IMG/VR virus record: IMGVR_UViG_2778261380_000011
Span: 1-19,475 of that record
Length of the DNA: 19,475 nt
DNA from: a virus
Taxonomy: Duplodnaviria; Heunggongvirae; Uroviricota; Caudoviricetes
Strand: one strand, 5' to 3'
Below are positions 327-19,475 of the stretch, piece by piece. The notes under the pieces were generated by a model, which worked only from the letters and a program-made list of their open reading frames with translations, was not told the DNA's origin and made no database searches. Position 1 is the stretch's first letter; every line of letters starts with the position of its first letter. The position numbers and the translations under genes were made by a program.

Positions 327-565
327 TTGGTGAGAATCGAAGCAACTTGTCGTGCCAATCGGGCCATATCGTCGTCAACGACGCCCCATTCAAGAACAGC
401 AAGCAGCATTGAGAACTTTGGAATCCAGTCCCTCTTCCACCTGCTGATCTGCGACTTATCAACTCCCACAGCTTCCGCTGTCTTCTCAGTTCCAAGCATT
501 GCGATTTTGTTAAGCAACGCACTCTCGATTCGTAGAGCCTCGTTGCGTTTGTTTGCACGAACCAT
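272..565 (-). CDS. cII: transcriptional activator CII (lambda-type)
   Basis: Translation from MVRANKRNEALRIESALLNKIAMLGTEKTAEAVGVDKSQISRWKRDWIPKFSMLLAVLEW... matches lambda CII from memory; ATG at 565-563 preceded by AAGGAA; ORF-track 117-aa version is an upstream extension. Confidence 0.92.
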   Translation of the reverse strand: MVRANKRNEALRIESALLNKIAMLGTEKTAEAVGVDKSQISRWKRDWIPKFSMLLAVLEWGVVDDDMARLARQVASILTNKKRPAATERSEQIQMEF

Positions 566-575
566 ATGTAAGTAT
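543..575 (+). promoter_or_regulatory. pRE-like CII-dependent promoter (TTGC-N6-TTGC at 543-556, -10 AAGTAT at 570-575)
   Basis: Exact TTGCgtttgtTTGC CII-binding repeat inside the cII 5' coding region, directed toward cI, as in lambda pRE. Confidence 0.6.
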
Positions 576-644
576 TTCCTTAGATAACAATTGATTGAAT
601 GTATGCAAATAAATGCATACACCATAGGTGTGGTTTAATTTGAT

Positions 645-675
645 GCCCTTTTTCAGGGCTGGGATGTGTAAGAGC
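645..675 (-). promoter_or_regulatory. nutR N-utilisation site (boxB 645-659, boxA 668-675) between cro and cII
   Basis: Minus-strand reading agctcttacacatcccagccctgaaaaagggc closely matches lambda nutR boxA/boxB; palindromic hairpin 601-620 (gtatgca-aataaa-tgcatac) lies at the tR1 position. Confidence 0.7.
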
Positions 676-684
676 TGGAATGTC

Positions 685-900
685 TTAAGCGGCTTTGTGT
701 TCCGGCGGGAACACGTCATCAAGACTGACTTTTGCGCCTAACTTGTTTAGGCACTCAACAAGAGCACGGCATGTTTTAAGGTCTGGGAAGCGACGACCAG
801 ATTCCCAATGTCCGATAGCTCCCTGTGTGCATCCAACTGCCTTAGCAAGTGTTGTTTGAGAGATATTCAGTGACTCTCGATATTTTCGTAGGTTGCTCAT
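685..900 (-). CDS. cro: Cro-like HTH repressor (non-lambda specificity)
   Basis: 71-aa product MSNLRKYRESLNISQTTLAKAVGCTQGAIGHWESGRRFPD... with helix-turn-helix similar to the CI N-terminus; ATG at 900-898 preceded by GGAGG; divergent from cI. Confidence 0.8.
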   Translation of the reverse strand: MSNLRKYRESLNISQTTLAKAVGCTQGAIGHWESGRRFPDLKTCRALVECLNKLGAKVSLDDVFPPEHKAA

Positions 901-926
901 ATGCCCTCCATAGTAACCATGAAACA

Positions 927-955
927 ATAATACGATATGTACTTTTAGAATGCAA
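927..955 (-). promoter_or_regulatory. pR-like promoter (-35 TTGCAT rc of 950-955, 17-nt spacer, -10 TATTAT rc of 927-932) overlapping operator site
   Basis: Near-consensus sigma70 hexamers read on minus strand 25-50 nt upstream of cro ATG; spacer contains operator-like AGTACATATCGTATT. Confidence 0.65.
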
Positions 956-1002
956 ACAAAAAATACATCTTGTGCATGGATGGTTTTAGTACAGAGCGTA
1001 AT
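929..1002. promoter_or_regulatory. oR operator region with at least two 15-bp sites (929-943 and 988-1002), consensus AGTACA-N3-CGTA-YT
   Basis: Same 15-bp pattern recurs at oL (1809-1823); sites overlap pR and the region just upstream of the cI start. Confidence 0.55.
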
Positions 1003-1011
1003 AATAAGGGT

Positions 1012-1671
1012 ATGAAAATGAAATGGTATGAACTGGCTAGATCCAGAATGAAAGAGCTCGGCATAACTCAAGAGAAGTTAGCTGAAGAGCTTGGTATGAC
1101 GCAGGGTGGAATTGGTCACTGGTTGCGCGGATCTCGTCATCCATCTCTTGACGAGATTGGTGTGGTGTTTAAATACCTTGGTATTGATAACGTCTCATTC
1201 AACCACGACGGTACATTTTCACCTGTTGGCGAATACTCATCTGCCCCCGTTAAAAAACAATATGAGTACCCTGTTTTTTCTCATGTTCAGGCCGGGATGT
1301 TCTCGCCTGAGCTTAGAACCTTTACCAAAGGTGATGCGGAGAGATGGGTCAGCACAACCAAAAAAGCCAGTGATTGTGCGTTTTGGCTTGAAGTTGAAGG
1401 TAATTCCATGACCGCGCCAACAGGATCCAAGCCAAGCTTTCCTGACGGGATGTTAATTCTCGTTGACCCTGAGCAGGCTGTTGAGCCAGGTGATTTCTGC
1501 ATAGCCAGACTTGGTGGTGACGAGTTTACCTTCAAGAAACTGATCAGGGATAGCGGTCAGGTGTTCCTACAGCCACTAAACCCGCAATATCCAATGATTC
1601 CATGCAATGATAGCTGTTCCGTAGTAGGGAAAGTTATCGCCAGCCAGTGGCCTGAAGAGACATTTAGTTAA
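1012..1671 (+). CDS. cI: CI-type repressor: heterologous N-terminal HTH domain fused to lambda-like LexA/S24 autocleavage C-terminal domain
   Basis: C-terminal two-thirds ([19 protein letters not shown]...[53 protein letters not shown]...) matches lambda CI from memory incl. Ser (GNSM) and Lys (FKKL); N-terminus [37 protein letters not shown] is not lambda; ATG at 1012 (ORF track starts upstream at TTG 970). Confidence 0.9.
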
Positions 1672-1703
1672 CAGCCTCACCACTCTAAAACACACAACAA
1701 TAA

Positions 1704-1733
1704 CCCGACCTTAGCGTCGGGTTTTCTTTTTCC
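1704..1733 (+). terminator. intrinsic terminator after cI
   Basis: Stem cccgac (1704-1709) / gtcggg (1716-1721) followed by ttttcttttt. Confidence 0.7.
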
Positions 1734-1796
1734 AAAATATAAACCCATTAAATACAAAGCGTTATAAAAAACTAATTATATTTAGAACATTTTGTA

Positions 1797-1825
1797 TTGA
1801 CTTGATAAAGTACAAATCGTACTAT
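1797..1825 (+). promoter_or_regulatory. pL-like promoter (-35 TTGACT 1797-1802, 17-nt spacer, -10 TACTAT 1820-1825) with oL operator 1809-1823
   Basis: Near-consensus hexamers; downstream leader catcagcaggacgcact... matches lambda pL transcript start region from memory; operator AGTACAAATCGTACT in spacer. Confidence 0.65.
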
Positions 1826-1865
1826 TTAGCCATCAGCAGGACGCACTAACCACCATGAAGGTGGG

Positions 1866-1895
1866 GCTCTTAAAAATTAAGCCCTGAAGAAGGGC
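1866..1895 (+). promoter_or_regulatory. nutL (boxA gctctta 1866-1872, boxB gccctgaagaagggc 1881-1895)
   Basis: boxB hairpin sequence identical to lambda nutL boxB as remembered; located in N leader. Confidence 0.75.
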
Positions 1896-2052
1896 AGCAT
1901 TCAAAGCAGAAGGCTTTGGTGTGTGTGATACGAAACGAAGCATTGGCCGGAAGTGCGAATCCGGATTAGCTGCCAATGTGCCATTGCGAGGTGTTTTCGT
2001 TCAGGACTACGACTCCCACACACAACCAAAGCTAACTGACAGGAGAATCCAG

Positions 2053-2379
2053 ATGGATGCACAAACACGCCGCCGCGAACGTCGCGCAGAGAAACAGGCT
2101 CAATGGAAAGCAGCAAATCCCCTGTTGGTTGGGGTAAGCGCAAAACCAGTTAACCGCCCTATTCTCTCGCTGAATCGCAAACCGAAATCACGAGTAGAAA
2201 GCGCACTGAATCCGATAGACCTTACGGTGCTGGCTGAATACCACGAACAGATTGAAAGCAACCTGCAGCGTATTGAGCGCAAGAATCAGCGCACATGGTA
2301 CAGCAAGCCACGCAGTGAAATGGGTGTGACTTGTGTTGGTCGCCAGAAAATGAAATTAGGCAGCAAACCACTTATTTGA
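2053..2379 (+). CDS. N: antitermination protein N (lambda-type)
   Basis: MDAQTRRRERRAEKQAQWKAANPLLVGVSAKPVNRPILSLNRKPKSRVESALNPIDLTVLAEY... matches lambda N (arginine-rich motif) from memory; AGGAG at 2041-2045; ORF-track start 1921 is an upstream extension. Confidence 0.92.
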   Translation: MDAQTRRRERRAEKQAQWKAANPLLVGVSAKPVNRPILSLNRKPKSRVESALNPIDLTVLAEYHEQIESNLQRIERKNQRTWYSKPRSEMGVTCVGRQKMKLGSKPLI

Positions 2380-2387
2380 GGTGAGAT

Positions 2388-2711
2388 ATGGAAGCATTAG
2401 TAGTAGAGCGAAGCGAGGATGGCTACTGGACGCACCCAGAATACGCCAACCTGTTTGGGGATAGAGAGGTAATTTCAGCTGATGAGTTCAGATCTTTCTG
2501 CAAGCAGCATGGCATTGAATCATCAATTGTTGAAATGGAAAACGACAACAATCAAACGGTAATTGACGCGTATTTTGAAGATGGGAATCAAAACATCAGT
2601 GGATGGGAGCCAAGCATGCCAGATGGAGAAGGATGGTTTGTCGGTTCGATTCACGATACAGAAGACGGTCCGATCTGCGTTTGGTTCAGGAATGTAGATA
2701 AGGCCGAATAG
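2388..2711 (+). CDS. hypothetical acidic protein (107 aa) in the ral/sieB position
   Basis: ORF with GAGGTG SD upstream of ATG 2388; no family recognised. Confidence 0.65.
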   Translation: MEALVVERSEDGYWTHPEYANLFGDREVISADEFRSFCKQHGIESSIVEMENDNNQTVIDAYFEDGNQNISGWEPSMPDGEGWFVGSIHDTEDGPICVWFRNVDKAE

Positions 2712-2727
2712 TCGGCCTTTATTTTTG
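2701..2727 (+). terminator. intrinsic terminator (stop codon inside loop)
   Basis: aggccga (2701-2707) / tcggcct (2712-2718) stem followed by ttatttttgg. Confidence 0.6.
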
Positions 2728-2748
2728 GCATAAACAACAGAGGCTAAC

Positions 2749-3045
2749 ATGGAATTTAAAGGTACTGAAGGTAAGTGGGAAATAATGATGGATGGCGATG
2801 AGATTAAAATCATCCAGGCAGACTCTCTTGAAAATGGCACAGGCTGGCGTTCGTATATTGCAATCTGTGAGGAAGTTCAATGCATTGAAGATGCCAATCT
2901 AATAGTGGCTGCACCTGACCTTCTCGAAGCGCTTCAGTTATTACTTAAGCAAACCAAAAATAGAACAACGACAACATATCCAGAATGGTATGGAGCTGTT
3001 AATAAAGGTCTCGCAGCAATAAGAAAAGCTCTTGGGGATAAGTAA
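2749..3045 (+). CDS. hypothetical protein (98 aa)
   Basis: ORF with AGAGG SD; no family recognised. Confidence 0.65.
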   Translation: MEFKGTEGKWEIMMDGDEIKIIQADSLENGTGWRSYIAICEEVQCIEDANLIVAAPDLLEALQLLLKQTKNRTTTTYPEWYGAVNKGLAAIRKALGDK

Positions 3046-3233
3046 TGAAAGTAAAAATAACCGCTTCTAATACCAGTTTTGTTAGTGTTGGTGATATTAC
3101 AGAAGTAATAACAAACCATGATGGAACACAAGTTATGTGGTCTGATTTTTGTAAAAGATATGAGCGAGTCACTTGGTGTAAACTCGTATGGGGCGTCGAA
3201 TACGAAGAATTACCTGAAATGCATGACGAATAA
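3045..3233 (+). CDS. hypothetical protein (62 aa), start overlaps preceding stop (TAATG)
   Basis: Translational coupling geometry; no family recognised. Confidence 0.55.
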   Translation: MKVKITASNTSFVSVGDITEVITNHDGTQVMWSDFCKRYERVTWCKLVWGVEYEELPEMHDE

Positions 3234-3328
3234 GCACTGTGTATTCATTCCAACGAGTGAATACACGGAGCAATGTCGCTCGTAACTAAACAGGAGCCGA
3301 CTTGTTCTGATTATTGGAAATCTTCTTT

Positions 3329-3353
3329 GCCCTCCAGTGTGAGGGCCTTTTTA
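3329..3353 (+). terminator. intrinsic terminator upstream of cIII (read through under N antitermination)
   Basis: gccctc (3329-3334) / gagggc (3341-3346) stem followed by cttttta; a second hairpin at about 3240-3267. Confidence 0.6.
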
Positions 3354-3418
3354 TATGCATACCAATAACGCTTCACTTGAGGCGTTTTCGTTATGCAATC
3401 AAACAGAAGGAGCATCCT

Positions 3419-3589
3419 ATGCAACAGTTCGCTATTGCAGGGGCGGCATCGGTTCGCCCTTTCAACCCGATTTTATCGGTACAGCATTCACGAAAAAATA
3501 TTTTAACCGGAGCAGACTTTAAACAACCAAGAATGAAAAGCTTGCTCGAAAAGCTTTGGGATATTTTGAAACAACAAGGCCGTCCATGA
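3419..3589 (+). CDS. cIII: CIII-like protein (56 aa)
   Basis: MQQFAIAG...LLEKLWDILKQQGRP resembles lambda CIII (MQYAIAG...LIDILNQPG) from memory; AGGAG 8 nt upstream of ATG 3419; ORF-track start 3314 is an extension. Confidence 0.7.
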   Translation: MQQFAIAGAASVRPFNPILSVQHSRKNILTGADFKQPRMKSLLEKLWDILKQQGRP

Positions 3590-3693
3590 GTTTTACAGAT
3601 AACTGGTCAGACGAAGAATTCATTCGTCTGATGAACAAAATGCTCAATCAGCACAAAGAACAGGAGAAAGATGATGATTCTGACTCTGAATGA
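3586..3693 (+). CDS. possible small acidic protein (35 aa) in the kil position
   Basis: ATG overlaps cIII stop (ATGA at 3586-3589); not in ORF track (short); overlaps start of next gene in another frame. Confidence 0.3.
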   Translation: MSFTDNWSDEEFIRLMNKMLNQHKEQEKDDDSDSE

Positions 3694-3982
3694 TAAGCGT
3701 GAAATATCGCAAATAATCGCAAGTTTTACTGATGAAGATTACGAACGAATCAACAGTGAAGTTAATCGCCTCTGCAAACGTTGCGACCCAATAAGCGAAA
3801 TGCTTCGCTCATATAAACCAGATGAACACACTAAGGACGCTATCGACTGGCTGGAAGATTATGACTGTAACTATCAGGAAAAAGCCGCTGAATGGTTCTG
3901 GGATGCAATAACCGAAAGAGTTAAGGCTGAATATGCCTTCGCAATATTCAAACGCAGACATATTTATGGAGAAGCTGCATGA
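3671..3982 (+). CDS. hypothetical protein (103 aa)
   Basis: ORF with GGAG upstream; stop overlaps recT start (ATGA). Confidence 0.65.
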   Translation: MMILTLNDKREISQIIASFTDEDYERINSEVNRLCKRCDPISEMLRSYKPDEHTKDAIDWLEDYDCNYQEKAAEWFWDAITERVKAEYAFAIFKRRHIYGEAA

Positions 3983-4881
3983 GCAATATCGTTGAATTCG
4001 TTAAACAGCAAGAGCAGTTATTCTGCGGAGCATTGACTGAACAGACGGTGACATGGGCTAAGGAAAGCCAGTTTGCAATTCAGTATTTCCAGAAAAATGA
4101 TTACCTGGCTAAAACGGCACTGGCAAATCCAACCAGCGCACAGAACGCCATCATCAATGTTGCGGCGATCGGCATCACCTTAAACCCGGCCAGCAAACTT
4201 GCTTATCTAGTTCCGCGCGACGGCATGGTTTGCCTTGATATCAGCTATATGGGATTACTTCACCTTGCACAGTCGACAGGATCAATTAAGTGGGGGCAAT
4301 GCAAACTGGTGTACTCAAACGACACCTATGAATCAAACGGCCTTGATTCAGCACCAACCCACAAATACAACGCATTTGGTGAGCGAGGCTCTATTGTTGG
4401 TGGTTATTGTACGGTTAAAACAGCAGATGGTGACTACCTCACTGAAGAAATGAGTCTGGCAGAAATTAAAGCAGTGGAAGCAACGAGCAAGGCAAAGAAT
4501 GGACCGTGGAAAACATTCTGGGAAGAGATGGCACGTAAAACAATAGTTAAACGCGCCAGCAAATACTGGCCTAAAGCCCAGCGACTGGATAATGCCATTC
4601 ACCTGCTTAACGAAGATGAAGGTATGCATCAGGAACCAGTTATGCCGCACAAATCAGAGGAAGATATCCGCGAAGATGAACGGAAACGCCAGCAGGAAAT
4701 AATGGAAAAAGCACAACTTCTTTGTGATGAAATGGCTCAGGCAGAAAACATGGATGATTTGAAGCGATATTTTGCAGAAGCATATCGCCTGACATCTGGA
4801 ATGAAATTGCAGCAGAACGTACAAGCCATTTACATAGAATGCAAAGCGAAACTGGAGGTTGCCAGTGAGCAAACTATATGA
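3979..4881 (+). CDS. recT: RecT-family single-strand annealing recombinase
   Basis: Motif NGPWKTFWEEMARKTIVKRASKYWP resembles RecT NGPWVTHWEEMAKKTAIRRLFKYLP (from memory); 300 aa; coupled to flanking genes. Confidence 0.88.
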   Translation: MSNIVEFVKQQEQLFCGALTEQTVTWAKESQFAIQYFQKNDYLAKTALANPTSAQNAIINVAAIGITLNPASKLAYLVPRDGMVCLDISYMGLLHLAQSTGSIKWGQCKLVYSNDTYESNGLDSAPTHKYNAFGERGSIVGGYCTVKTADGDYLTEEMSLAEIKAVEATSKAKNGPWKTFWEEMARKTIVKRASKYWPKAQRLDNAIHLLNEDEGMHQEPVMPHKSEEDIREDERKRQQEIMEKAQLLCDEMAQAENMDDLKRYFAEAYRLTSGMKLQQNVQAIYIECKAKLEVASEQTI

Positions 4882-5347
4882 AATAGCCAATGAATACGCA
4901 AAATTGATGGATTCAGATTTAGAGCCAGAGATGATTGCTGACACAATAGAAGGCATGGAAGGAGAATTTACCGATAAAATAGAGCAACTTCTTGCCATTA
5001 TTAAAAATGAATCTGGTTATGCTGAACGCCTCAAGGACGAGGCAAAATCACTGAATGAACGAGCCGCAGTAATTCAAAATAAGATTGACAGCATTATGGC
5101 GTATATAGCGTCATCGCTTGAAATGGTTGGCAAGAAAAAGATTCGAGCGGGTATTCACCAGGTAACAATCCGCAAACCGTCAGAAACTGTAGAAATCATC
5201 GACTCAAGCGCCCTTCCTCCTGAATACGTTGAGTTTGAAACGACAATTAAAGCCGACAAACTGGCAATCAAACACCAACTAAAAGCAGGAATAAATATCC
5301 CCGGCGCTCAACTCAAAGTTGGGAAACCTTCACTTCTTATCAAATAA
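4865..5347 (+). CDS. hypothetical coiled-coil protein (about 160 aa) in RecT-partner position, possibly Siphovirus Gp157-like
   Basis: GTG 4865 preceded by GGAGG (4854-4858), overlaps recT stop; family assignment is tentative. Confidence 0.55.
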   Translation: MSKLYEIANEYAKLMDSDLEPEMIADTIEGMEGEFTDKIEQLLAIIKNESGYAERLKDEAKSLNERAAVIQNKIDSIMAYIASSLEMVGKKKIRAGIHQVTIRKPSETVEIIDSSALPPEYVEFETTIKADKLAIKHQLKAGINIPGAQLKVGKPSLLIK

Positions 5348-5358
5348 CGGTATCGCCT

Positions 5359-5673
5359 ATGAAAAAGACTCCATGGGAGAAATGGGAAGTCGATTTCTTA
5401 CGCGAAGTAGCGGCGACAATGCCAGTTGAAGTTATCGCAGAAAAACTGGAAAGGACTGAAAAAGCAGTAATGGCGAAAGCAACAAGGATTGGCGCTGACA
5501 TTGTTAGCCGACTTCGTGGAAGACGCTGGACAAGAGCCGAAGTATCACTTTTCGGTAAGTTCTCCGCAGAAGAAATAGCAATTGCAACCTGCCGCTCAAT
5601 TTATTCAGTAAGAGCTATGCGATACAAGCTAAAAAAACTCGATGAAGAAAGAGCAGGCATACGAATAAATTAA
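5359..5673 (+). CDS. hypothetical protein (104 aa)
   Basis: ORF in operon context; weak SD. Confidence 0.55.
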
Positions 5674-5689
5674 CAAAGAGGAATTTACC

Positions 5690-5854
5690 ATGAGAGGACT
5701 TGCATACAATCCCGGCATTCTTCCGGCAGAAATGATTATTCGCCAACGCGTAAAGCCAATGCCATCGAGAGAGGAATTGCTTAAGAGAAATTCTTTTCCA
5801 TCAGTGAATCAAAACAAATATCTGAATGCGATGTGGAGGAGTGGGAAGAAATGA
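5690..5854 (+). CDS. hypothetical small protein (54 aa)
   Basis: ATG 5690 preceded by AAGAGGA; stop overlaps next start (ATGA at 5851-5854); not in ORF track. Confidence 0.45.
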
Positions 5855-6360
5855 AACAAATGTCACTAATTGAGATGGATGGATTTCTGAAAGGTAAATG
5901 CATCCCACGAGATTTAAAGGTTAACGAAACAAACGCTGAATATCTTGTCCGTAAGTTCGGTGAACTTGAATCAAAACTGGAAACGGCGTTGCGGGAGTGT
6001 CGTTCTGCTGGAATCACGATTGATAACCTTGAGGCCAAGTGCGCGGCGCTGGCAGCGGAGAGTGTGGGGATGAAGAAGTTCTGCAAAGACGCTGCATTCG
6101 ATGCCGATTACGAAGCAGAGCTAGGTATGGAGCGTGGTGGATTCAGTGATGCGCTTAACGAAATCAAAACCCCAGCCACCGATGCTTTCCTGTCTGAAGT
6201 GCGGGCGCAGGGCGTGGAGATGCTGGCAAAAAATCATCAGAGTATCGTCAATGCACTTAAGGGAGATTCTTTATTTTCTGATGGTGAATACCTGCATGCA
6301 GCTATTGTTTCCGCAGCTGTATATTTCGCTGCAGAGCTTCGCAAAGGAGGCAACCAGTGA
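5851..6360 (+). CDS. hypothetical protein (169 aa)
   Basis: ATG 5851 with GGAGG upstream; ORF-track start 5833 is a GTG extension. Confidence 0.65.
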
Positions 6361-6611
6361 GTAATTCAGCACGACTACAGCTTGGTTTTTCACCGCTATC
6401 AAAAACTATCATGCTGGCAAAAATGCGCTATGTTGAAGGTGGACGTATGCGCGTTGGCAATGATCCAGGTCGTGATGTTACCAATGAGGCTGCTCAATTG
6501 GTGTGGCGACTGGTCATGGCTGAAGGTGGTGAGATCGCGTGGGAGCTGGATGATGGTTCTCGCATGGTGTTGAAGGCAGAAAAGCAGGAGGCAACCAGTG
6601 AGCAAGATTGA
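6357..6611 (+). CDS. hypothetical protein (84 aa) bounded by identical 17-mers
   Basis: GTG 6357 overlapping preceding stop, preceded by AGGAGG; ends within second copy of aggaggcaaccagtgag. Confidence 0.45.
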   Translation: MSNSARLQLGFSPLSKTIMLAKMRYVEGGRMRVGNDPGRDVTNEAAQLVWRLVMAEGGEIAWELDDGSRMVLKAEKQEATSEQD

Positions 6612-7584
6612 TTATCAGGCACTGCGTGCTAAGGCAGAAAAAGCAACGTGTGGCGAGTGGTCGCTCGAATATGGAGAGAGCCGATTTGATGGTGATGATG
6701 CGCTAATTCATCGTGAAGTTGCTGGATATATTCCCATTTGCAGAATTGAAGGAGCGCATCCAGAAAGCGGTTTCGATGAAGATTTCCAAATGGAACAGCA
6801 GGCCAATGCTGAATTCATCGCCGCAGCCAATCCGGCTACCGTACTGGCGCTGCTGGATGAACGGGAAAGAAACCAGCAATACATCAAACGCCGTGACCAG
6901 GAGAACGAGGAAATTGCGCTTACGGTAGGGAAGCTGCTAATCGAAAACGGCCGGCTTGTTGCCGATACGCTACGCCACTTAGCTGATAACGAAATCGACT
7001 CTGATTATTTTGCTATCACCTCAACTAATGAGAACGGTACTGAAATTGATCATGAGATGTCTATTACCGATTACGCACTGCAAGCTGCCGGAACTGTAGA
7101 CGAATTGGTTGCGGCGCTGGAAGCCGCAAAATCAAAACTCAACGAGCAGCGTGAATATTACGAGGGAGTAATCGCGGATGGGAGTAAGCGTATTGCTGAA
7201 CTGGAGAAAAGCGAAGAGCAACTCATCAATGAGCGTGACCATGCTGAGTCTGCTTTAGCTGATATGTACTTTGCAGCAACCGGTAACAGGCCGGAGTGGA
7301 GCAACTGGTTCGGCTTTTCAGATGCTGTCGATGCCGTGGTTGACAGAATAGCTGATTTAGAAGCCAAACAGCCATCGCCGGTAGTGCCGGATAATGCATC
7401 AGAGTCGCTTGCTTATGCTTACAAAGAGCTTACGCCTGAGATTATGCGCGGTCATATCGCTGTATTCGAGCGATATGGAATAGCCCCAAACGATAGCATT
7501 ACCACAATTCAGGCACTGCGAATCGCGCTGGATGGTATAGAGCGGAGCGACGCCATGCTTCAGGGAGGTAATAATGACCAATAA
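6598..7584 (+). CDS. Ead/Ea22-like family protein
   Basis: GTG 6598 after AGGAGG; N-terminus MSKIDYQALRAKAEKATCGEW resembles Ea22-like prophage proteins (from memory). Confidence 0.7.
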   Translation: MSKIDYQALRAKAEKATCGEWSLEYGESRFDGDDALIHREVAGYIPICRIEGAHPESGFDEDFQMEQQANAEFIAAANPATVLALLDERERNQQYIKRRDQENEEIALTVGKLLIENGRLVADTLRHLADNEIDSDYFAITSTNENGTEIDHEMSITDYALQAAGTVDELVAALEAAKSKLNEQREYYEGVIADGSKRIAELEKSEEQLINERDHAESALADMYFAATGNRPEWSNWFGFSDAVDAVVDRIADLEAKQPSPVVPDNASESLAYAYKELTPEIMRGHIAVFERYGIAPNDSITTIQALRIALDGIERSDAMLQGGNNDQ

Positions 7585-8188
7585 CAACCTAACAGACGAG
7601 CGCCTGAGCGTACTTATCCGTGTGGCTAGGGATTCTCTTGAATTGTATGAAATGGAGTTGCCTGTCATTGATGATGTAATGCTAGCGCTGGCCGAACTTC
7701 AGCAACGCCGCGCCGCCATGCTTCAGGGAGGCCAACCTGTAAACCAAACTTACAACTTGCCAGAATTAATCGAAGGCATGGAGGTTTCCATTGATGTAAG
7801 CACTTGTGATGCTGATTTAGGTAATCGCTATTTCGGCACCGTCACCGAGGCGTCAGAACTTGATACTGCCAAGAATGGTTACATCCTCCTGGTTCAGGAC
7901 GCAGAGCCAAACTTCGATGTAAATGGCAACTATCCGGTAACTCCGGATGGTTGGATAAGCTGTAGTGAGCGAATGCCAGAAATGGGAGAGCGACAATGCT
8001 ATGTGTTAGCAGCTGACTTTAAAAACAACTACCCACCAAACATCCCCAACACTCAGGTCGGCGTATATGGCGACTGGTTTAATGATGGCAATCCCACTTG
8101 GGATGACGGTGATGGCGAAGACCTGTATCTCAAAGAGGTAACCCACTGGATGCCTCTACCAGAACCGCCTCGATTAAAGGAGCTATAA
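7574..8188 (+). CDS. DUF551 domain protein with ea22-like N-terminal remnant
   Basis: C-terminal motif VTHWMPLPEPP typical of DUF551; N-terminal about 50 aa resemble an Ea22 C-terminal tail and end at a repeated 17-mer. Confidence 0.75.
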   Translation: MTNNNLTDERLSVLIRVARDSLELYEMELPVIDDVMLALAELQQRRAAMLQGGQPVNQTYNLPELIEGMEVSIDVSTCDADLGNRYFGTVTEASELDTAKNGYILLVQDAEPNFDVNGNYPVTPDGWISCSERMPEMGERQCYVLAADFKNNYPPNIPNTQVGVYGDWFNDGNPTWDDGDGEDLYLKEVTHWMPLPEPPRLKEL

Positions 8189-8302
8189 TAGTGAACTATT
8201 ATATCTATTTGTATTAAAAGAGTTTTTATAAAATAAATCTTCCAAAGCATGTAAAAACACTGTTAATCTTAACGTGTGTGAAACGTGAAGAGAGGTGTTG
8301 AA

Positions 8303-8584
8303 ATGAGCATTCATGGTTTGTGTGAAGATCAAGAGCAATGGGCTATGCAGACCCTTATGGGATCAGGAGTTCTTGCAAGGTGCAGAATCCATAACGATGT
8401 AATTTTAGACAGCGGAAATGATGCTTCTTCTGCTTATAAATTAGGAACTTACCTATATCAAAAAGATAATAGCTGCAACTTATTCAATACTCTTACTGAA
8501 GCCCGCGACGCAATAAAGGATGCATATGAATCGTATTGTGGGATTGATGATTGCCCACAATGCTCAAAATACATTGACGATTAA
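8303..8584 (+). CDS. hypothetical Cys-containing protein (93 aa)
   Basis: ATG 8303 with GAGGTG SD; AT-rich upstream region; followed by tandem hairpins 8605-8660. Confidence 0.55.
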   Translation: MSIHGLCEDQEQWAMQTLMGSGVLARCRIHNDVILDSGNDASSAYKLGTYLYQKDNSCNLFNTLTEARDAIKDAYESYCGIDDCPQCSKYIDD

Positions 8585-8672
8585 TAATATGAACAAGTAA
8601 CTATCCTCGCACTCGCGGGGATTTCTTTTATCTGAACTCGCTACGGCGGGTTTTGTTTTATGGAGATGATAA

Positions 8673-8840
8673 ATGCACTTCCGAGTCACAGGTGAATGGA
8701 ATGGAGAGCCATTCAACAGAGTTATCGAAGCAGAAAACATCAATGACTGCTATGACCACTGGATGCTATGGGCGCAGATAGCACATGCAGACGTAACCAA
8801 TATTCGAATTGAAGAACTGAAAGAACACCAAGCCGCCTGA
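8673..8840 (+). CDS. hypothetical small protein (55 aa)
   Basis: ATG 8673 preceded by GGAG; not in ORF track; followed by terminator. Confidence 0.45.
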   Translation: MHFRVTGEWNGEPFNRVIEAENINDCYDHWMLWAQIAHADVTNIRIEELKEHQAA

Positions 8841-8853
8841 TGGCGGTTTTTTA
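8832..8853 (+). terminator. intrinsic terminator
   Basis: ccgcc (8833-8837) / ggcgg (8842-8846) stem followed by tttttta. Confidence 0.6.
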
Positions 8854-8897
8854 TTACCTGATTTGCAGGTTCGATTCCCTATTCGGAGATAGCACTC

Positions 8898-9098
8898 ATG
8901 CAACACGAACTACAGCCTGATTCACTGGTTGATTTGAAATTCATCATGGCCGATACTGGCTTCGGTAAAACCTTCATCTATGACCGGATTAAGTCCGGCG
9001 ACCTGCCAAAAGCCAAAGTTATCCACGGGCGAGCAAGATGGTTATATCGTGACCATTGTGAATTCAAAAATAAGCTCTTAAGCCGCGCCAATGGGTAA
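8898..9098 (+). CDS. alpA: AlpA-family transcriptional regulator / excisionase-like protein
   Basis: 66 aa; LKFIMADTGFGKTFIYDRIKSGDLPKAKVIHGRARWLYRD fits AlpA/Xis winged-helix pattern (from memory); 250 bp upstream of integrase on the same strand. Confidence 0.8.
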   Translation: MQHELQPDSLVDLKFIMADTGFGKTFIYDRIKSGDLPKAKVIHGRARWLYRDHCEFKNKLLSRANG

Positions 9099-9346
9099 AA
9101 TAGCGGGTAAAATATTTCTCACATCTAAAAAATACCATTCCAATCAATCCCCTGCCGCTTCAAGTAGATGTCTGCAGGGGACACCATGAACACTTCTCAC
9201 TAAGTTCAATTAATTCCATAACTCACTGTTTTAACTGATATCATCTCCTTATACTCGTCCAGCAAAGTACCATTATTTCTAATGGAATCTATACATCTTT
9301 GCGTATAACATTGTGTATAACTGAGTTCGATCTTTTTTCTATACAC

Positions 9347-10522
9347 ATGCTGCTATCTGACATCCAAATAAAAAGAGCAAAACCGAAGGACAAACCCTAT
9401 ACGCTTAACGATGGTATGGGGCTATCACTCCTGATCGACACAGCGGGCAGTAAAGGCTGGCGTTTTCGCTATCGCTTTGCAGGTAAGCCTAAGATGATTT
9501 CCTTTGGCGTATATGGCGATGTGTCGTTGGCACAGGCACGTACCAAACGTGATGAAGCGCGTTCGATGTTAGCCAACGGGATAAACCCAAGTGAAGCCAG
9601 AAAAGCAGATAAGATTGCTTTGCAGTTCGCGCATGAGAACAGCTTTGAGTCTGTGGCCAGAGAATGGCACTCATCGAAAAAAGCCACCTGGTCAGAGGGT
9701 TATGCAAAAGAGGTTCTCAATTGTATGGAAAAGGATATTTTTCCTTTTATCGGCCAGCGCCCAATTGAGCAGATTGAACCATTAGAACTGCTAACCGTCC
9801 TGCAAAAAATAGAGAAAAGAGGTGCGCTAGAGCAAACCAGTAAGATCCGCCGCCGCTGTGGTGAAGTGCTTCGTTATGCTGTTGCCACTGGTAGAGCAAA
9901 GTATAATTTTGCACCCGATTTAGCTATCGCACTCAACAAACCTAAAACCCAACACTTCCCGTTCCTGACTGAAAGCGAGTTGCCCGAGTTCGTTAATGCT
10001 CTGGATAACTATCAGGGCAGTTTAGTTACCAAATACGCCACGCAGCTGTTGATGCTAACAGGCGTGCGAACAATTGAACTACGTGCAGCGGAATGGGCTG
10101 AGTTTGATTTAGATAATGCCTTATGGGAGATCCCCAAAGAACGGATGAAGAAACGCCGCCCCCATCTGGTTCCGTTATCAACTCAGGCGATCAATATCCT
10201 GAAAAAGCTGCAAGAAATAACAGGGAATTACAGCCTCGTTTTCCCTGGCCGGAATGACGTCAGTAAACCAATGAGCGAAGCCAGCATCAACAAAGTGATA
10301 AAACTACTGGGTTATCACGGTCGGTTAACGGGTCACGGTTTCAGGCATACCATGAGCACCATCTTGCATGAGCATGGGTTTGAAAGTGCCTGGATTGAAA
10401 TGCAGCTTGCGCATGTTGATAAGAACTCTATTCGAGGTACTTACAATCATGCGCAATATATTAAAGATCGACAAGTAATGATGGAATGGTACGCTAGCTT
10501 ATTAAATACGACCTGCTATTAA
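9347..10522 (+). CDS. int: tyrosine recombinase, P4-type integrase
   Basis: N-terminus MLLSDIQIKRAKPKDKPYTLNDGMGLSLLIDTAGSKGWRFRYRF typical of P4-family arm-binding domain; C-terminal HGFRHT (HxxR) and catalytic Tyr region RGTYNHAQY; ORF-track start 9299 is an extension. Confidence 0.92.
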   Translation: MLLSDIQIKRAKPKDKPYTLNDGMGLSLLIDTAGSKGWRFRYRFAGKPKMISFGVYGDVSLAQARTKRDEARSMLANGINPSEARKADKIALQFAHENSFESVAREWHSSKKATWSEGYAKEVLNCMEKDIFPFIGQRPIEQIEPLELLTVLQKIEKRGALEQTSKIRRRCGEVLRYAVATGRAKYNFAPDLAIALNKPKTQHFPFLTESELPEFVNALDNYQGSLVTKYATQLLMLTGVRTIELRAAEWAEFDLDNALWEIPKERMKKRRPHLVPLSTQAINILKKLQEITGNYSLVFPGRNDVSKPMSEASINKVIKLLGYHGRLTGHGFRHTMSTILHEHGFESAWIEMQLAHVDKNSIRGTYNHAQYIKDRQVMMEWYASLLNTTCY

Positions 10523-11452
10523 ATCCAGCATGAAACAAATATGGTGAGTAATTTGATACTGTTTGTTTTTTGGCAACCCAGGGAAATGCCTTACAGTTGG
10601 TTGACTATTGTAATAATAATAGTTAAGACCAATGTTGCTGCCAAACTGGGTTGGATGTTGGGGAACAAGATTTGTAATTTGATCTGAAACATCTAAAAAT
10701 TTTGCAGTAACATTTGAACTTCCTCGTTGCGTGTTGCTTGATACAAAATGACGAATCCAAACTGTATTCGCTTGTAAATTCTTGAACACCAAATGTGCGG
10801 CAACAGCAGAAGGTTGACCACCTCCAAGATCTAGTACCTGGCCAGTAATTGTATAATCGCCAAATCCTAAGTAATTTTGTCCCACGAATTGATGTGCGTG
10901 CGTGAAAAGTTCCGGCCCATTATAATCAGCATTTTTTGCTAACTTTCTAAAGTTATCGCTAATAATAATTAACTTCGACAAAGGAAGAAGAGCGCACTGA
11001 TTAGGAAGCATTTTATTATTTAAAACAACATGATAACTAATCAATTGATTTGTCGCCAACAACTGAATATCAGAGTTGGATAATGATGGATTATCATATA
11101 GAAGTGCAACTCGTCTATTTAAGTTAGCATTCAACCAATTATTAATATCATTAATCGTTGTATTGGGCTGAATAAGATATCCAGAGATGATATTATTTTT
11201 ATTTGTTAATACACTTGATAAATTTTGATTTAAAGTTAAGACGTTATTGTGTGAAGAAAAATCTTCCTGATAAGGATTAAGGATAACAATTATGTCAGAA
11301 TTCCAAACATTTAAACATGTTAATAAATTTCTCGTATTGACGTTAATTGGTTCTAAAATTGGTAGCAGACCATTTAGGCTAACTCCCTTCGCAACGAGGT
11401 CCCTAAGGCATAATAACTCTGTACTTCTCGCATACAAATATGGGCTATACAT
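10502..11452 (-). CDS. hypothetical protein (316 aa), second gene of AT-rich cargo operon
   Basis: ATG 11452 preceded by AGGAG; 21-nt gap after upstream gene; no recognisable domain; 3' end overlaps integrase 3' end by 21 nt (convergent). Confidence 0.8.
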   Translation of the reverse strand: MYSPYLYARSTELLCLRDLVAKGVSLNGLLPILEPINVNTRNLLTCLNVWNSDIIVILNPYQEDFSSHNNVLTLNQNLSSVLTNKNNIISGYLIQPNTTINDINNWLNANLNRRVALLYDNPSLSNSDIQLLATNQLISYHVVLNNKMLPNQCALLPLSKLIIISDNFRKLAKNADYNGPELFTHAHQFVGQNYLGFGDYTITGQVLDLGGGQPSAVAAHLVFKNLQANTVWIRHFVSSNTQRGSSNVTAKFLDVSDQITNLVPQHPTQFGSNIGLNYYYYNSQPTVRHFPGLPKNKQYQITHHICFMLDLIAGRI

Positions 11453-11473
11453 AACTTACAACTCCTGAGGATA

Positions 11474-12355
11474 TCAACAAATTTTAATTTTTACATCCAT
11501 CAAATTCATGATGAATTCTTTTTGCTTTCTTGATAATGGTGTTGCATAACCTAAAACACGTAAACATGCTGGAAGAGAATAAATATAATCCAAAAAAACT
11601 TTATCGTTACATCTTTTTTTCATAGCAGAGATAAAGTATTTATTTGCTATGTTTAATGGCATCTGCATGAATATCTCTTTACAATATTCATAAACCAATC
11701 CGTTAGGCATATTTATTTTAGTTGAAGTGTAATCTTCTATTATAGCTAAGAACTCTTCCTTTCTAAGAACTGAAAACAAGCTGTCACTTTTAATATAATC
11801 AATATTTGAATCTGCCTCCTTAATGACACTCAATTGATCTTTTTTATTCAAAACCATAACTCCCACTCTGGGGAGATTTAAAGCACAATATTTACTTGCA
11901 TACTCTGGATGTGTAACTATATACACTTTATCAAAAACATCCAAATAATCAGGGGCTTGAGTAATCAACCTTTTTGGTGAATCATACTCTGTCTTAATCT
12001 CGTAAGCTGTAGACGTACCATTAAACACCGCAACATCCACTATAGAGTTTTTAATTGGTAACTCTATGGACGACGAACTTGTTTTTGGGCTGTGCTTACC
12101 GAATATTATTTTATTGACAAGTGCTGTCTTATAAACATATTCATTTCTATAATTCAGACGCAAAAAATCATATAATGATGTAAATAAATCCCTTAGTGAA
12201 ATCTCATGTTCATTATTATCATTGTTTGAAAACAGTGTTTCATAGCAGTAAGAATCAAAACTCCCAAATAAATCCGAAATATCCTTACCTTTTGCTAAGG
12301 ATGAAAAAATGGGGCGACGGAAAAATTTAGCATATTCCTTTTTATTATGACTCAT
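11474..12355 (-). CDS. hypothetical protein (293 aa) with PD-(D/E)xK nuclease-like motif, first gene of AT-rich cargo operon
   Basis: Motif SIVD(107)VAVF-x9-YE(119)IK(121) (nt 11993-12037); strongly AT-rich coding sequence. Confidence 0.8.
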   Translation of the reverse strand: MSHNKKEYAKFFRRPIFSSLAKGKDISDLFGSFDSYCYETLFSNNDNNEHEISLRDLFTSLYDFLRLNYRNEYVYKTALVNKIIFGKHSPKTSSSSIELPIKNSIVDVAVFNGTSTAYEIKTEYDSPKRLITQAPDYLDVFDKVYIVTHPEYASKYCALNLPRVGVMVLNKKDQLSVIKEADSNIDYIKSDSLFSVLRKEEFLAIIEDYTSTKINMPNGLVYEYCKEIFMQMPLNIANKYFISAMKKRCNDKVFLDYIYSLPACLRVLGYATPLSRKQKEFIMNLMDVKIKIC

Positions 12356-13034
12356 TACTCATACTCTATAAACATCATGCAATTTGATAAGTTATGACGA
12401 ATTCTCACCATCCAGTTACTACCTGTACATACTAATCAAAAAAAACGAGTACGCAAGATACGAAAGTACTTTTCTTGTTCACCAGTTAGCTTACCTTGAT
12501 CCTCACCAGCGACTGGAAGATAGGTAGCAGTATATGTGGAAACCTTCCCCTAGCTAGGTCTACAAACGTAGTTTGGGCATTTAGGCTCCACGATTCACGG
12601 TTTGACACGGCCTGATATCTGCACATTCGTTTTGATATGCAGCAATCGTGAAAAAGGAAAATATACGCTCGACAGACCAAAACGGCACTACACCGCACCC
12701 GCCTGCGGTTTTCATATCACTAAAAATTTTCAGCCTGGATTTTTTACAAACGATACCGCCAGTCCGTGCCAGTCCTCGAGATGTACTGCGATACAGGAAC
12801 TGAAAAGAATGAAAAGAAATTCATTTTTTTTCAGTTTTACTGTCCGTCGAATCTATGGCCTGAATACGCAACTCTATGATATTAAATGGATAATTAATTT
12901 TAGGTGTGTGATTTTATGAAGGTTTGTGAAACATGAAGAAGATAACCAGTTGAAAAATAATAATTTTATGACCGTATAAACTGAAATCCTGTGTTCAGGT
13001 TCCGGGAACAGATCGGCCATTCCCGACGCATACT

Positions 13035-13307
13035 TTACCCATTCTTTTGCGCAGCCAGCAGCAACTTTAAAGCCTTTTCCCGTTCCTCGGGTGGAATTGC
13101 ATCAATCAGCTCTTTAACCCTTCCCTGCCCGTTCAGCGCGCTTGGACTAACGGAATGGGAGAAAGCAACATTCATCACAAACGAGTGACCGCACTCCACA
13201 TTAGAGCAATAGCAGTACACATCGTACAGTTGTGGGTGTTTCCTGTTTGTTTTACCTATCCGTGCTACTGCCTGACATGTGGGGCAGTACATTCTCATCA
13301 TCTTCAT
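13035..13307 (-). CDS. Ogr/Delta-family zinc-finger transcriptional activator
   Basis: MYCPTCQ...YCYCSNVECGH Cys4 pattern as in P2 Ogr / P4 Delta; exact start among several N-terminal Met codons uncertain. Confidence 0.75.
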   Translation of the reverse strand: MKMMRMYCPTCQAVARIGKTNRKHPQLYDVYCYCSNVECGHSFVMNVAFSHSVSPSALNGQGRVKELIDAIPPEEREKALKLLLAAQKNG

Positions 13308-16684: not shown

Positions 16685-16913
16685 CGCGCATCACTCCCTT
16701 AATTGTGCTGGTTTCCTTAACAACGCCATCCAGTTGTTCGGCAATACAGGCCACTAAAGCCGCAGCGCCTTCCGCTGAAACAGTTCTCGCTCCATTCACT
16801 GTGGGCACGGACAAGACCTCTGCAAGAAACTCACTGGCCAGTGCCGCCCGTAACAGACGACTCTCCCCCTGTTCACTCAATATGCAGCCTTGCTTAAAAT
16901 TCATGGATTTCAT
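16677..16913 (-). CDS. hypothetical protein (78 aa)
   Basis: ATG 16913 preceded by GGAGGTG; overlaps neighbours at both ends. Confidence 0.6.
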   Translation of the reverse strand: MKSMNFKQGCILSEQGESRLLRAALASEFLAEVLSVPTVNGARTVSAEGAAALVACIAEQLDGVVKETSTIKGVMRDE

Positions 16914-17113
16914 GCAACCACCTCCCCGGCTCTTTTCACAGGGATACGGGCAGCAAAGCTCAGGATAAATTCAGTGGCAAGTTTAAGGCGTGCAGCATGC
17001 TCGCATTCTGCGATTACACGCACAGGGCGTGGACGGGCATCACGGTCTGTACGGCGGACAGCCAGAAAGACAAAGGTAAATTCAGGGTGAGATAAAGCAG
17101 GGACTGTAGCCAT
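16910..17113 (-). CDS. hypothetical protein (67 aa), first gene of replication operon
   Basis: ATG 17113 preceded by AAGGAGG (rc of 17121-17127); ORF-track 196-aa version is an unsupported upstream extension across the leader. Confidence 0.6.
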   Translation of the reverse strand: MATVPALSHPEFTFVFLAVRRTDRDARPRPVRVIAECEHAARLKLATEFILSFAARIPVKRAGEVVA

Positions 17114-17123
17114 AATGGCAACC

Positions 17124-17390
17124 TCCTTCAGATAGCGGGTAACGCTACCACCGGAGTTCCTACGCTCATGGGTGGTAGCCCAGACGGGGGTAGGAATACC
17201 GGCTCTGAAGGATACCGGCCAGCCCGAAAGCTGCCCCGCCTGGACTACCATAATTCTGATGATGTGGCGTAAAAAATAAAAAAATACAATCAGCCACCAC
17301 ACCATAAATTTTAGGTGAGTCAAAGCTGCGACACAAAAAAACACGCCTAGCGCGTGTAGTATCGCCTTCAGATAACACGGGTTCCTACGC
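17124..17390 (-). promoter_or_regulatory. structured leader with duplicated element (gttcctacgc at 17156-17165 and 17381-17390, each after ccttcagata) and a complementary gtaggaa motif (17190-17196) between them; P4 CI-RNA-like immunity architecture
   Basis: Direct repeat plus internal complement; inverted repeat gctaccacc/ggtggtagc (17135-17179) encloses the downstream copy just before the RBS. Confidence 0.45.
17334..17357 (-). terminator. intrinsic terminator/attenuator within the leader
   Basis: On minus strand: stem acacgc/gcgtgt (17341-17357) followed by U7 (rc of 17334-17340). Confidence 0.6.
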
Positions 17391-17419
17391 CCGGCTGCCG
17401 ATTTTGCGGCAACCTTTAA

Positions 17420-17449
17420 ACTATATCCCGCGCATTCCTGGTGAGGCAA
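17420..17449 (-). promoter_or_regulatory. sigma70-like promoter for the leader/replication operon (-35 TTGCCT rc of 17444-17449, 18-nt spacer, -10 TATAGT rc of 17420-17425)
   Basis: Hexamers read on minus strand upstream of the repeated leader element. Confidence 0.5.
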
Positions 17450-17552
17450 GAAATTTATAACCGAAAACTGATCATTGCCTGGATTAATTAACGCTGGCAT
17501 GCTTAAGCCTCTGCTTAAAAATAGTTCTTCATTTTTCCTGATGCTGTAAACG

Positions 17553-17587: not shown

Positions 17588-18592
17588 TCAATCCGCAAAC
17601 GTCAGGGTGCACTCATCAACAGCCGCGTACAGTTCAGGTTCACCGAGTGCATAACCTTCATTGCGCAGGTAGGAATGCACGTATTCACTGCTTTCATCAT
17701 CAAACTCAGCACGAAACCAGCGTGTTATCGCCTGAGTGTAAATATGCAGATTATCCAGCGTCGTTACTGCCAGACGCTTACCCGGCATAAACGGGGGAAT
17801 AAACGCAAAGCGGCCAGCAACAGAACTTGTAGCCATCTGTGCCGCATTCACATCAGACGGGCGGTCTGCGGCATTAAATAACTTCAGGCGTTGATGTGCT
17901 GCCAGCTCTGCCCCAACCAGTACAACCAGACGAGGATCTTCACGAAACTGCTCAGCAATAAGCTCTGTAATCAGATGGTTGGCCAGAGCATCAATATTTT
18001 TCCAGGTGCCAGTCTCTCCCAGAGTGACAGGCTCAGAGATGATTTGCTTTCCGTTCCCGTAGGCTTTCGCCAGTGCATGCCAGCCAATATTGACATCCTC
18101 GCCTTTTTTATTGATTTCCGGGTTTGTAGTATTTGCAATCGACACACCGTTGAAACCGACCCGCAGCATGTCCAGCGCATATGCCTGGGCAAAAAAGCTC
18201 TCAACCGTTTTCTCAAACTCATCCGGCACGCCGGTATGGTAAATATGAGACATATCGGAATAGCTGATCCGGGCGCAGGTATCCGTCTCTGTCAGAAAGA
18301 ACTCCGTACCATTGATTGCCATTTTTTTGTGGAAACGGCCACCATCCACACGTCCGGTATACAGTTCACTGGCACCAATATTGACGGCATTACCTGACAC
18401 GGCGTTAACATCACGTAGGGTAATATTTTTAATAAGCCACCCGGATTCCAGAATTGAGGTACGCAGTATATTTTCAGTAGGTTCGCTTAATGCAAAGCGT
18501 CTGTTTGATTCTTCCTGATAGTTAGTGCCAGTGACGAATTTATTATGATAACGACGTGCTGCGTCCGGCCTTTCAGTTTTGAAGGCATACAT
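17588..18592 (-). CDS. P2-family major capsid protein (gpN-like) homolog
   Basis: Segments LDMLRVGFNGVS, DALANHLITELIAEQFREDPRLVVLVGAELAA and C-terminal half align with P2 gpN as I remember it; ATG 18592 with AAGGTG SD. Confidence 0.7.
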   Translation of the reverse strand: MYAFKTERPDAARRYHNKFVTGTNYQEESNRRFALSEPTENILRTSILESGWLIKNITLRDVNAVSGNAVNIGASELYTGRVDGGRFHKKMAINGTEFFLTETDTCARISYSDMSHIYHTGVPDEFEKTVESFFAQAYALDMLRVGFNGVSIANTTNPEINKKGEDVNIGWHALAKAYGNGKQIISEPVTLGETGTWKNIDALANHLITELIAEQFREDPRLVVLVGAELAAHQRLKLFNAADRPSDVNAAQMATSSVAGRFAFIPPFMPGKRLAVTTLDNLHIYTQAITRWFRAEFDDESSEYVHSYLRNEGYALGEPELYAAVDECTLTFAD

Positions 18593-18614: not shown

Positions 18615-19475
18615 TTAAGAAAAGATTTTATTTTTGTACTCAGTAACCAGATTGTATTTCATTACATGCTCAACATAATCCCGGTCACTTACGACTGAAC
18701 GTAATACATAATTATCTGCTCGATAGTACTCCCTGTAAGCCATAGCTCTTGCCATTCCACCGTTATTTAATACATAACGATCAGTTGGAACGCTACAACG
18801 ACTAATAATTTCACTCACGGAATCAGATAAAGACTTGAGTGCATCAGTAATAAATTTAATATCACGGACAACGTCACTGTCATTAAATACAGAAATAAAA
18901 TCAGCAGGGATCTGGCCGGATTGAGGAAATATATTCAGTAAACGCTTATCGATTCCCTTCCCAATGTAGTTTCCTTCATCGGCCAGTACTCCCGGCAAAA
19001 GCTTGATCGTGCTCAATCGACTATGTTGTTCATTCAACCGGGAAACAGCCAGATGGTAATACCGTTCAGCATCCGCTCGTTCAGCATGCCCCATTTTATT
19101 CGTTTTGGCTTCAGCAATGCTACTGACGCCGTTTTTTGAGAATGTGCTTTTCCATGCAACTTCCGCATTTGTCACTTCACGCTGCCGGAAAGATAACTCT
19201 TCCTCTTCCTGACGACACAACTGGGCATAACGGCTCAGGAGCAGGTTGATCTCATTCGCCACAGTTTCCGTATCAGGTACTGTTAACCCCGTAAGTGAAT
19301 ACAGCTTTTCACCTTTAGCTCGCAGCTTATTCAGTGAATATATTTCAATAATACGCACAATACAGGCCGTGTCGCTATGAGTCTCTTTAAATGATCTTAC
19401 TTTGTAACTATCTAACACCGACACATGTTCGTTCTTAATTGATGCCAATTTCTTCTTAAAAACATTGTCAACCAT
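18615..19475 (-). CDS. hypothetical protein (286 aa), AT-rich
   Basis: ORF begins with ATG exactly at window end (rc of 19473-19475) and ends 22 nt before capsid gene; no family recognised. Confidence 0.65.
   Translation of the reverse strand: MVDNVFKKKLASIKNEHVSVLDSYKVRSFKETHSDTACIVRIIEIYSLNKLRAKGEKLYSLTGLTVPDTETVANEINLLLSRYAQLCRQEEEELSFRQREVTNAEVAWKSTFSKNGVSSIAEAKTNKMGHAERADAERYYHLAVSRLNEQHSRLSTIKLLPGVLADEGNYIGKGIDKRLLNIFPQSGQIPADFISVFNDSDVVRDIKFITDALKSLSDSVSEIISRCSVPTDRYVLNNGGMARAMAYREYYRADNYVLRSVVSDRDYVEHVMKYNLVTEYKNKIFS

Follow-up and report, generated by a model that had tools for sequence, protein, structure and literature searches.

The minus-strand gene at 11474–12355 of the window (the whole 19,475-nucleotide stretch of DNA analysed here) encodes a 293-aa protein that, as judged from homologue alignments and a structural model, is a genuine member of the PD-(D/E)xK restriction-endonuclease fold and presumably an active nuclease. 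Its sequence places the protein in the phage P4 cII (sce7726) family, so that it is no orphan, and it is encoded directly upstream of a TIM-barrel protein of the sce7725 family. The 293-aa protein is most likely the Mg-dependent nuclease component of a two-gene anti-phage module. We consider it probable that the sce7726/sce7725 pair is such a module, of the same lineage as the gop-beta-cII system of P4 and with the nuclease probably acting as its effector.

The first-pass annotation had proposed a 293-aa ORF with a nuclease-like catalytic motif. Translation of the minus strand agreed with this proposal; the ORF at 11474–12355 has the length claimed, LPIKNSIVDVAVFNGTSTAYEIK comprises residues 99 to 121, and Asp-107, Glu-119, and Lys-121 lie exactly where they had been placed. 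The nucleotide interval given with the motif, 11993–12037, is correct for the span from Asp-107 to Lys-121, that is, for the catalytic motif D107-x11-E119-x-K121 (minus strand) recognized from the translation and the homologue alignments; it does not hold for residues 99 to 121, which occupy 11993–12061. In shuffled versions of the 293-aa protein, the pattern D-x(8,25)-[DE]-x-K was found in 91% of cases (n = 2,000), so that the bare motif is within chance expectation, and a stricter form with hydrophobic flanks was found in 1.7% of shuffles (n = 20,000). Since the bare motif is this frequent in shuffled sequences, the case for a nuclease rests on conservation and structure. Both support the restriction-endonuclease-fold reading, in that the motif is invariant in homologues, its residues occupy the right strand positions, and the overall fold matches.

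A search of 5.8 billion proteins retrieved 417 relatives of the 293-aa protein, and 43 of these, with 38–66% identity, were used for the conservation alignment. Asp-107, Glu-119, and Lys-121 were invariant in all 43 aligned homologues, as were Arg-70, Glu-72, Lys-76, Glu-98, Ser-104, Asn-112, Asp-125, Arg-129, Gln-133, Asp-136, and Tyr-137. A second alignment of 15 sequences incorporated four distant cII-type proteins at 16–24% identity. The three motif residues were again preserved throughout this set, together with Glu-72, Glu-98, Ile-120, Asp-125, Leu-130, Gln-133, Phe-141, and Gly-165.

To evaluate the fold, the structure of the 293-aa protein was predicted with AlphaFold2 on the homologue alignment (pLDDT 93.2, pTM 0.91). 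This check, recommended when the motif was first described, revealed the alpha-beta-beta-beta-alpha-beta core within residues 70 to 183 (11807–12148, minus strand). The core helices span residues 72 to 87, carrying Glu-72, and 128 to 138, carrying Gln-133-x3-Tyr-137, while the strands at 94–101, 104–111, and 115–121 carry Glu-98, Asp-107, and the Glu-119/Lys-121 pair, respectively; later core strands are located at 143–148, 164–169, and 175–179. The active site would be composed of Glu-72 from helix 1, Asp-107 from strand 2, Glu-119-x-Lys-121 from strand 3, and Gln-133-x3-Tyr-137 from helix 2.

The core is flanked by two helical regions, neither of which has a Pfam match. The N-terminal extension (residues 1 to 69; 12149–12355, minus strand) folds in the model into helices 3–12, 14–21, 26–31, 35–42, and 54–68, with Arg-14, Phe-17, and Ala-21 conserved among the 43 homologues; it is present in sce7726-type proteins and missing from P4 cII-type proteins, whose alignment begins at approximately residue 70. 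The C-terminal all-helical domain, defined by the model and the alignments, covers residues 184 to 293 and the stop codon (11474–11806, minus strand). Arg-248, Leu-261, Pro-262, Arg-266, Gly-269, and Leu-274 are conserved in this domain in the sce7726 type, whereas the cII type is divergent here. A motif of the form R-x-T...L-P-x-x-L-R-x-L-G-Y is also conserved in its distal part (residues 233 to 293; window 11477–11659). A DUF2267-like match of residues 233 to 285 to a repeat of TTHA1432 (2ysk) was rejected as not significant (E 0.25), and this resemblance is the only hint to the identity of the C-terminal domain.

Sequence and profile searches of the PDB with the 293-aa protein gave no significant relative. 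Minimal PD-(D/E)xK nucleases used for comparison were SPO1766 (3dnx), XisH, the C-terminal domain of NucS, and the nuclease domain of Can2/Card1. They share 12–15% identity with the 293-aa protein, show no detectable sequence homology to it, and differ from it in their partners and extra domains; none has its helical N- and C-terminal domains. Judged by the D, ExK, and QxxxY motifs, by the four Fe-S cysteines of Cas4, and by structural proximity to RecB, Cas4, and lambda exonuclease, the protein is at most a candidate member of the RecB/Cas4-type nucleases.

The NCBIfam model NF033832 ("sce7726 family"), with a cut-off of 70 bits, recognized the 293-aa protein at 175.6 bits and P4 cII, which RefSeq also names sce7726, at 151.4 bits. 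Pfam family PF26915 (Phage_P4_cII) is precomputed on all 120 homologues listed, including the 100%-identical cluster. Pfam-A scans with the whole protein and with its N-terminal, core, and C-terminal segments returned no match at E 10, because PF26915 is newer than the release scanned. PADLOC matched the protein to PDLC02989 'cll' (1.2e-18), the sole match for the sce7726/sce7725 pair among the PADLOC 2023 models, and BLASTP against P4 cII aligned residues 107 to 167 at 39% identity (E 9e-11). When 1.84 billion cluster representatives were searched with a profile, 3,400 clusters matched at E <= 1e-3, of which 779 reached E <= 1e-30; the sce7726/cII family is therefore large.

Comparison with P4 cII itself disclosed a D...ExK...Q core that is common to both proteins and invariant, and both genes reside in a cargo slot adjoining the integrase of a P4-type satellite. 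In contrast, overall identity is only about 24%, the significant pairwise match is confined to residues 107–167, and the 293-aa protein has the additional 69-residue N-terminal helices and a different C-terminal domain. The two also differ in orientation, since the 293-aa protein is encoded co-directionally with its partner and P4 cII is convergent with beta.

The partner gene (10502–11452, minus strand) encodes a 316-aa protein that scores 242 bits on NCBIfam NF033831 ("sce7725 family") and has a TIM-barrel fold. It lies 21 nt downstream of the sce7726 gene; the spacer of this co-transcribed pair (11453–11473, minus strand) contains an AGGAG ribosome-binding site, and the order of the genes and their tight spacing are kept in related loci. 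Neither Pfam Beta_protein (PF14350) nor PADLOC gave a direct match to the partner, and BLASTP of sce7725 against P4 Beta was uninformative. The signal came from profile-profile comparison alone: hhalign aligned 41 sce7725 sequences with 34 Beta-family sequences (PF14350) over 250 columns with 89% probability (E 2.2e-6), pairing the invariant N-terminal Y-x-P-x-L-x-x-R-x-x-E and G-D-Y/H motifs of the two families, while a single-sequence hhalign of sce7725 against P4 Beta reached only 6.7%. The profile data suggest that sce7725 is likely, though not proven, to be a remote homologue of P4 Beta; it is not a member of PF14350. PDB sequence and profile searches found no significant relative for sce7725 or for Beta.

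Two further observations concern the barrel. A Foldseek search of BFVD with the sce7725 model gave one strong match, A0A5J6TRS2 (379 aa) from Gordonia phage Powerball (E 2.4e-9, TM 0.62), a phage that tblastn with P4 Beta did not reach. An sce7725-family gene (338 bits) is also located at 2129–3142 (minus strand) of OR848224.1, labelled 'Listeria phage LM 4-14-1'; next to it are genes for a GNAT acetyltransferase-like protein and for an amino-acid ABC permease, and the contig looks chromosomal rather than phage. The absence of an sce7726 neighbour at this locus implies that the TIM-barrel family may occur outside the nuclease pairing.

The defence reading draws on the P4 locus. [quoted passage not shown] Like this system (DefenseFinder Rst_gop_beta_cll; Rousset et al. 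2022), the E. coli pair combines a cII-family nuclease with a TIM barrel that is likely to be remotely related to Beta, and is carried as dispensable cargo in the same kind of satellite hotspot. Unlike it, the cassette has no gop, the partner is sce7725 and not Beta/PF14350, and gene order and orientation differ. Protection against phage has been shown only for P4's own locus; the E. coli pair looks like a toxin-less relative of gop-beta-cII.

In order to define the gene organization elsewhere, we surveyed 80 loci, one genome per species. The sce7725 gene was directly downstream of sce7726 on the same strand in approximately 68 of the 80, across many phyla and with a median gap of 12 nt; loci lacking this pairing were mostly contig ends or decayed copies and fragments, with a few true orphans. 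A third gene followed directly in 37 loci (median gap 1 nt). Its product of about 340 aa has a CxxC...CxxC zinc ribbon, a RES domain in 34 of 34 cases, and a HEPN/RES-NTD1 region in 25 of 34. These RES-linked loci were found in Desulfobacterota, Bacteroidota, Nitrospirota, Verrucomicrobiota, Acinetobacter, and others, and the same three genes occur in an ICE of Salmonella houtenae and in one human-gut contig. In the S. houtenae ICE, the cassette is positioned at the element's edge with a caspase-like (ICE-like protease p20) gene nearby, in a region whose features lie at 1740–2705 (minus strand) and 4956–7824 (plus strand).

The first two genes of the RES cassettes are orthologous to the E. coli pair and share its order and spacing, but the RES gene is missing from the E. 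coli cassette and from its whole proteobacterial/acidobacterial lineage. Two-gene loci were found in beta- and gammaproteobacteria and in Acidobacteria, and none of 24 had RES, Gop, or Beta within 6 kb on either side. Neighbour-joining analysis placed them in a single contiguous block that also holds the window protein; the two-gene form is one stable lineage, with its catalytic residues intact. The window likewise contains no gop, Beta, or RES remnants (the best phmmer value for a Gop-like ORF was E 0.15), and the interval between sce7725 and the integrase has no room for gop. A third arrangement was observed in P4-type loci of Pseudomonas, Methylibium, and Acinetobacter, where a small ORF precedes Beta and a convergent cII; Gop is the third gene in these loci as it is in P4. 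Judged from its sequence, Gop appears to be a small protein in which a charged helical region comes after two hydrophobic segments, and it has no relationship to the RES protein family. With the third gene being RES, Gop, or missing, the constant core consists of the nuclease and the TIM barrel.

This modularity could be read as a sign that the nuclease-fold protein is a sensor or accessory, forming with the TIM barrel a recognition and regulation core that drives a separate, swappable toxin (a RES NADase-type protein or Gop). The two-gene form of E. coli would then use an unlinked effector or a non-lethal route. The interchangeable third gene, RES in 37 loci, Gop in others, and absent in the E. 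coli cassette, is in agreement with this idea, and so is a report that in P4 the toxicity comes from Gop, with Beta as the antidote (Ghisotti 1990, cited in PMC9122126). In three-gene relatives, the toxin is another protein, RES or Gop; the nuclease may thus have a sensor or accessory role in them, and perhaps in the E. coli pair as well. Nevertheless, we find this explanation doubtful for the E. coli pair; the two-gene loci and the window have none of RES, Gop, and Beta while keeping all catalytic residues, and a fully conserved active site speaks for catalysis over mere binding.

We favour a destructive role for the nuclease in the two-gene module, given that in a lineage with neither RES nor Gop it is the only candidate for that step. 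In the mechanism we propose, sce7726 and sce7725 would be co-expressed from a horizontally acquired 2.2-kb cassette, and the TIM-barrel protein would restrain the nuclease or sense a phage cue. Upon infection, the nuclease would cut DNA, whether of the phage, the host, or both, and the infection would be aborted.

The genomic setting of the pair was assessed by comparison with a satellite of E. coli strain 32F4, which has the same backbone at 93–96% identity. Homology (blastn) ends at window position 10491 and restarts at 12678, which defines 10492–12677 as a discrete, exchangeable cargo module. This 2.2-kb cassette adjoins the integrase, comprises the pair and a 320-bp leader, and differs in composition from its surroundings (GC 30–34% versus 44–54% in the flanks). 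The leader (12356–12677, minus strand) is non-coding, specific to the cassette, and presumed to be the promoter region, as homology to the 32F4 satellite is back only at 12678; a scan for sigma-70 consensus sequences upstream of the sce7726 gene gave nothing convincing. On one side of the cassette is a P4-type tyrosine integrase gene (9347–10522, plus strand; Pfam Arm-DNA-bind_3, Phage_int_M, and Phage_integrase, with coordinates transferred from RefSeq), which is convergent with sce7725 and overlaps it by 21 nt. On the opposite side, the nearest backbone gene encodes an Ogr/Delta-like zinc-finger protein (13035–13307, minus strand; Pfam Ogr_Delta 5e-14, and RefSeq). In 32F4, a reverse transcriptase and a SLATT protein replace the pair; these occupy the cargo slot at 2404–4301 and presumably form another defence system. 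The existence of a near-identical satellite that does not carry sce7726/sce7725 makes the pair dispensable cargo, and the slot behaves as the defence hotspot known from P4-like satellites does (PMC9122126).

This dispensability bears on whether the protein serves the life cycle of the mobile element, for example by controlling integration and excision or lysogeny, and not defence. Its historical name, cII, and its structural resemblance to XisH would point in that direction. Such a role is highly improbable in view of the 93–96% identical backbone that carries reverse transcriptase and SLATT genes in place of the pair, and of the description of gop, beta, and cII of P4 as non-essential (PMC9122126). 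Moreover, the pair has diverse neighbours in other genomes, many of them belonging to defence systems or mobile elements (methylases, type I S subunits, HipA, and nucleases among them), integrases account for only 4 of 78 of them, and an obligate TIM-barrel partner with linkage to a RES toxin is unlike a recombination directionality factor. The role of an integration or excision accessory was rejected on the same grounds.

The cassette also consists of two genes only, neither of them a cognate DNA methyltransferase. A nuclease of this fold could in principle restrict foreign DNA without cell death, either in a modification-dependent (type IV-like) manner or with the TIM barrel modifying DNA or nucleotides. 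We regard this as quite unlikely, given that no methyltransferase is present and that such activity fits poorly with the cell death seen for gop-beta-cII; classical restriction-modification was rejected for the same two reasons.

The cassette is horizontally acquired and is carried by an E. coli satellite of the P4 type that has argW as its integration site. At an identity of at least 95%, the cassette is present in 425 of 5,426 complete E. coli genomes (~8%), including several that bear the label O25b:H4-ST131. The copy of the element in strain SK1144 is located at tRNA-Arg between yfdC and dsdC; besides the integrase and the pair, it contains ogr/delta, genes for a DUF927 primase and a P2-family capsid protein, an Icd/Ash-like gene, and an HTH gene.

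Members of the sce7726/cII family are already catalogued, and one belongs to a known defence system; the protein described here is therefore not a new kind of thing. We found no paper that describes how cII, or any sce7725/sce7726 pair, folds or works, and none that mentions PF26915 or the P4 cII fold. In the portions of the literature available, the names sce7725 and sce7726 appear only as annotation labels inside genomic islands, and the supplements of Rousset 2022 contain neither the two RefSeq accessions of the pair nor the family names. The literature searched does not appear to describe the nuclease assignment, the relationship of sce7725 to Beta, or the two-gene and RES three-gene variants built on a common core. 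For the validated gop-beta-cII system, the predicted nuclease assignment of cII offers catalytic residues to mutate, and Beta gains a likely, remote TIM-barrel relative that travels with a cII-family nuclease. The system also becomes tied to wider two-gene and RES-linked cassettes that are missed by PADLOC 2023. The E. coli cassette has only two genes and lacks an additional toxin; as the simplest member, it could be a convenient model for the roles of nuclease and barrel.

A broader interpretation, which we put forward tentatively and do not favour, is that a cII-type nuclease and a Beta/sce7725-type TIM barrel form the conserved core of one large, unrecognised modular defence family of ~3,400 clusters in many phyla. 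Its killing module would be interchangeable: a RES NADase-type toxin in some members, Gop in others, and, where both are missing, the nuclease itself. The gop-beta-cII system of P4 would be one rearranged member, and the TIM barrel would represent a novel type of enzyme that senses or regulates in immunity.

The remainder of the window contains other features of the integrated elements. Positions 1–9171 belong to a different mobile element with lambdoid early genes, including RecT (3979–4881), Ead/Ea22 (6598–7584), and DUF551 (7574–8188). The reference argW locus is matched only from 9172 onwards, a position within the 3' end of tRNA-Arg; ARAGORN detected no tRNA in the window. The sequence suggests that a prophage and the satellite are integrated in tandem at the same att site.

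On the satellite side, a P2-family major capsid gene (17588–18592, minus strand; Pfam 9.5e-67) is adjacent to a 286-aa ORF (18615–19475, minus strand). Pfam scans of the satellite's larger ORFs found no psu or sid homologues, and the P4 cos sequence had no match in the window at up to 3 mismatches, making this an atypical P4-like satellite. Two Rfam families scored above their gathering thresholds, C4 antisense RNA at 17168–17255 (minus strand, 81 bits) and isrK at 17336–17413 (minus strand, 69 bits). Both matches are in or beside the Ash/Icd-like gene at 16910–17500, and the region looks like the P1/P7/P4-type antisense immunity region of the satellite.

Finally, the cassette is split by IS1 or IS4321 in several E. 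coli genomes (for example, NZ_AP022549.1 and NZ_CP107120.1), and in some of these interrupted copies sce7725 is annotated in two pieces. Such interruptions could be a sign that the intact pair is costly to carry.
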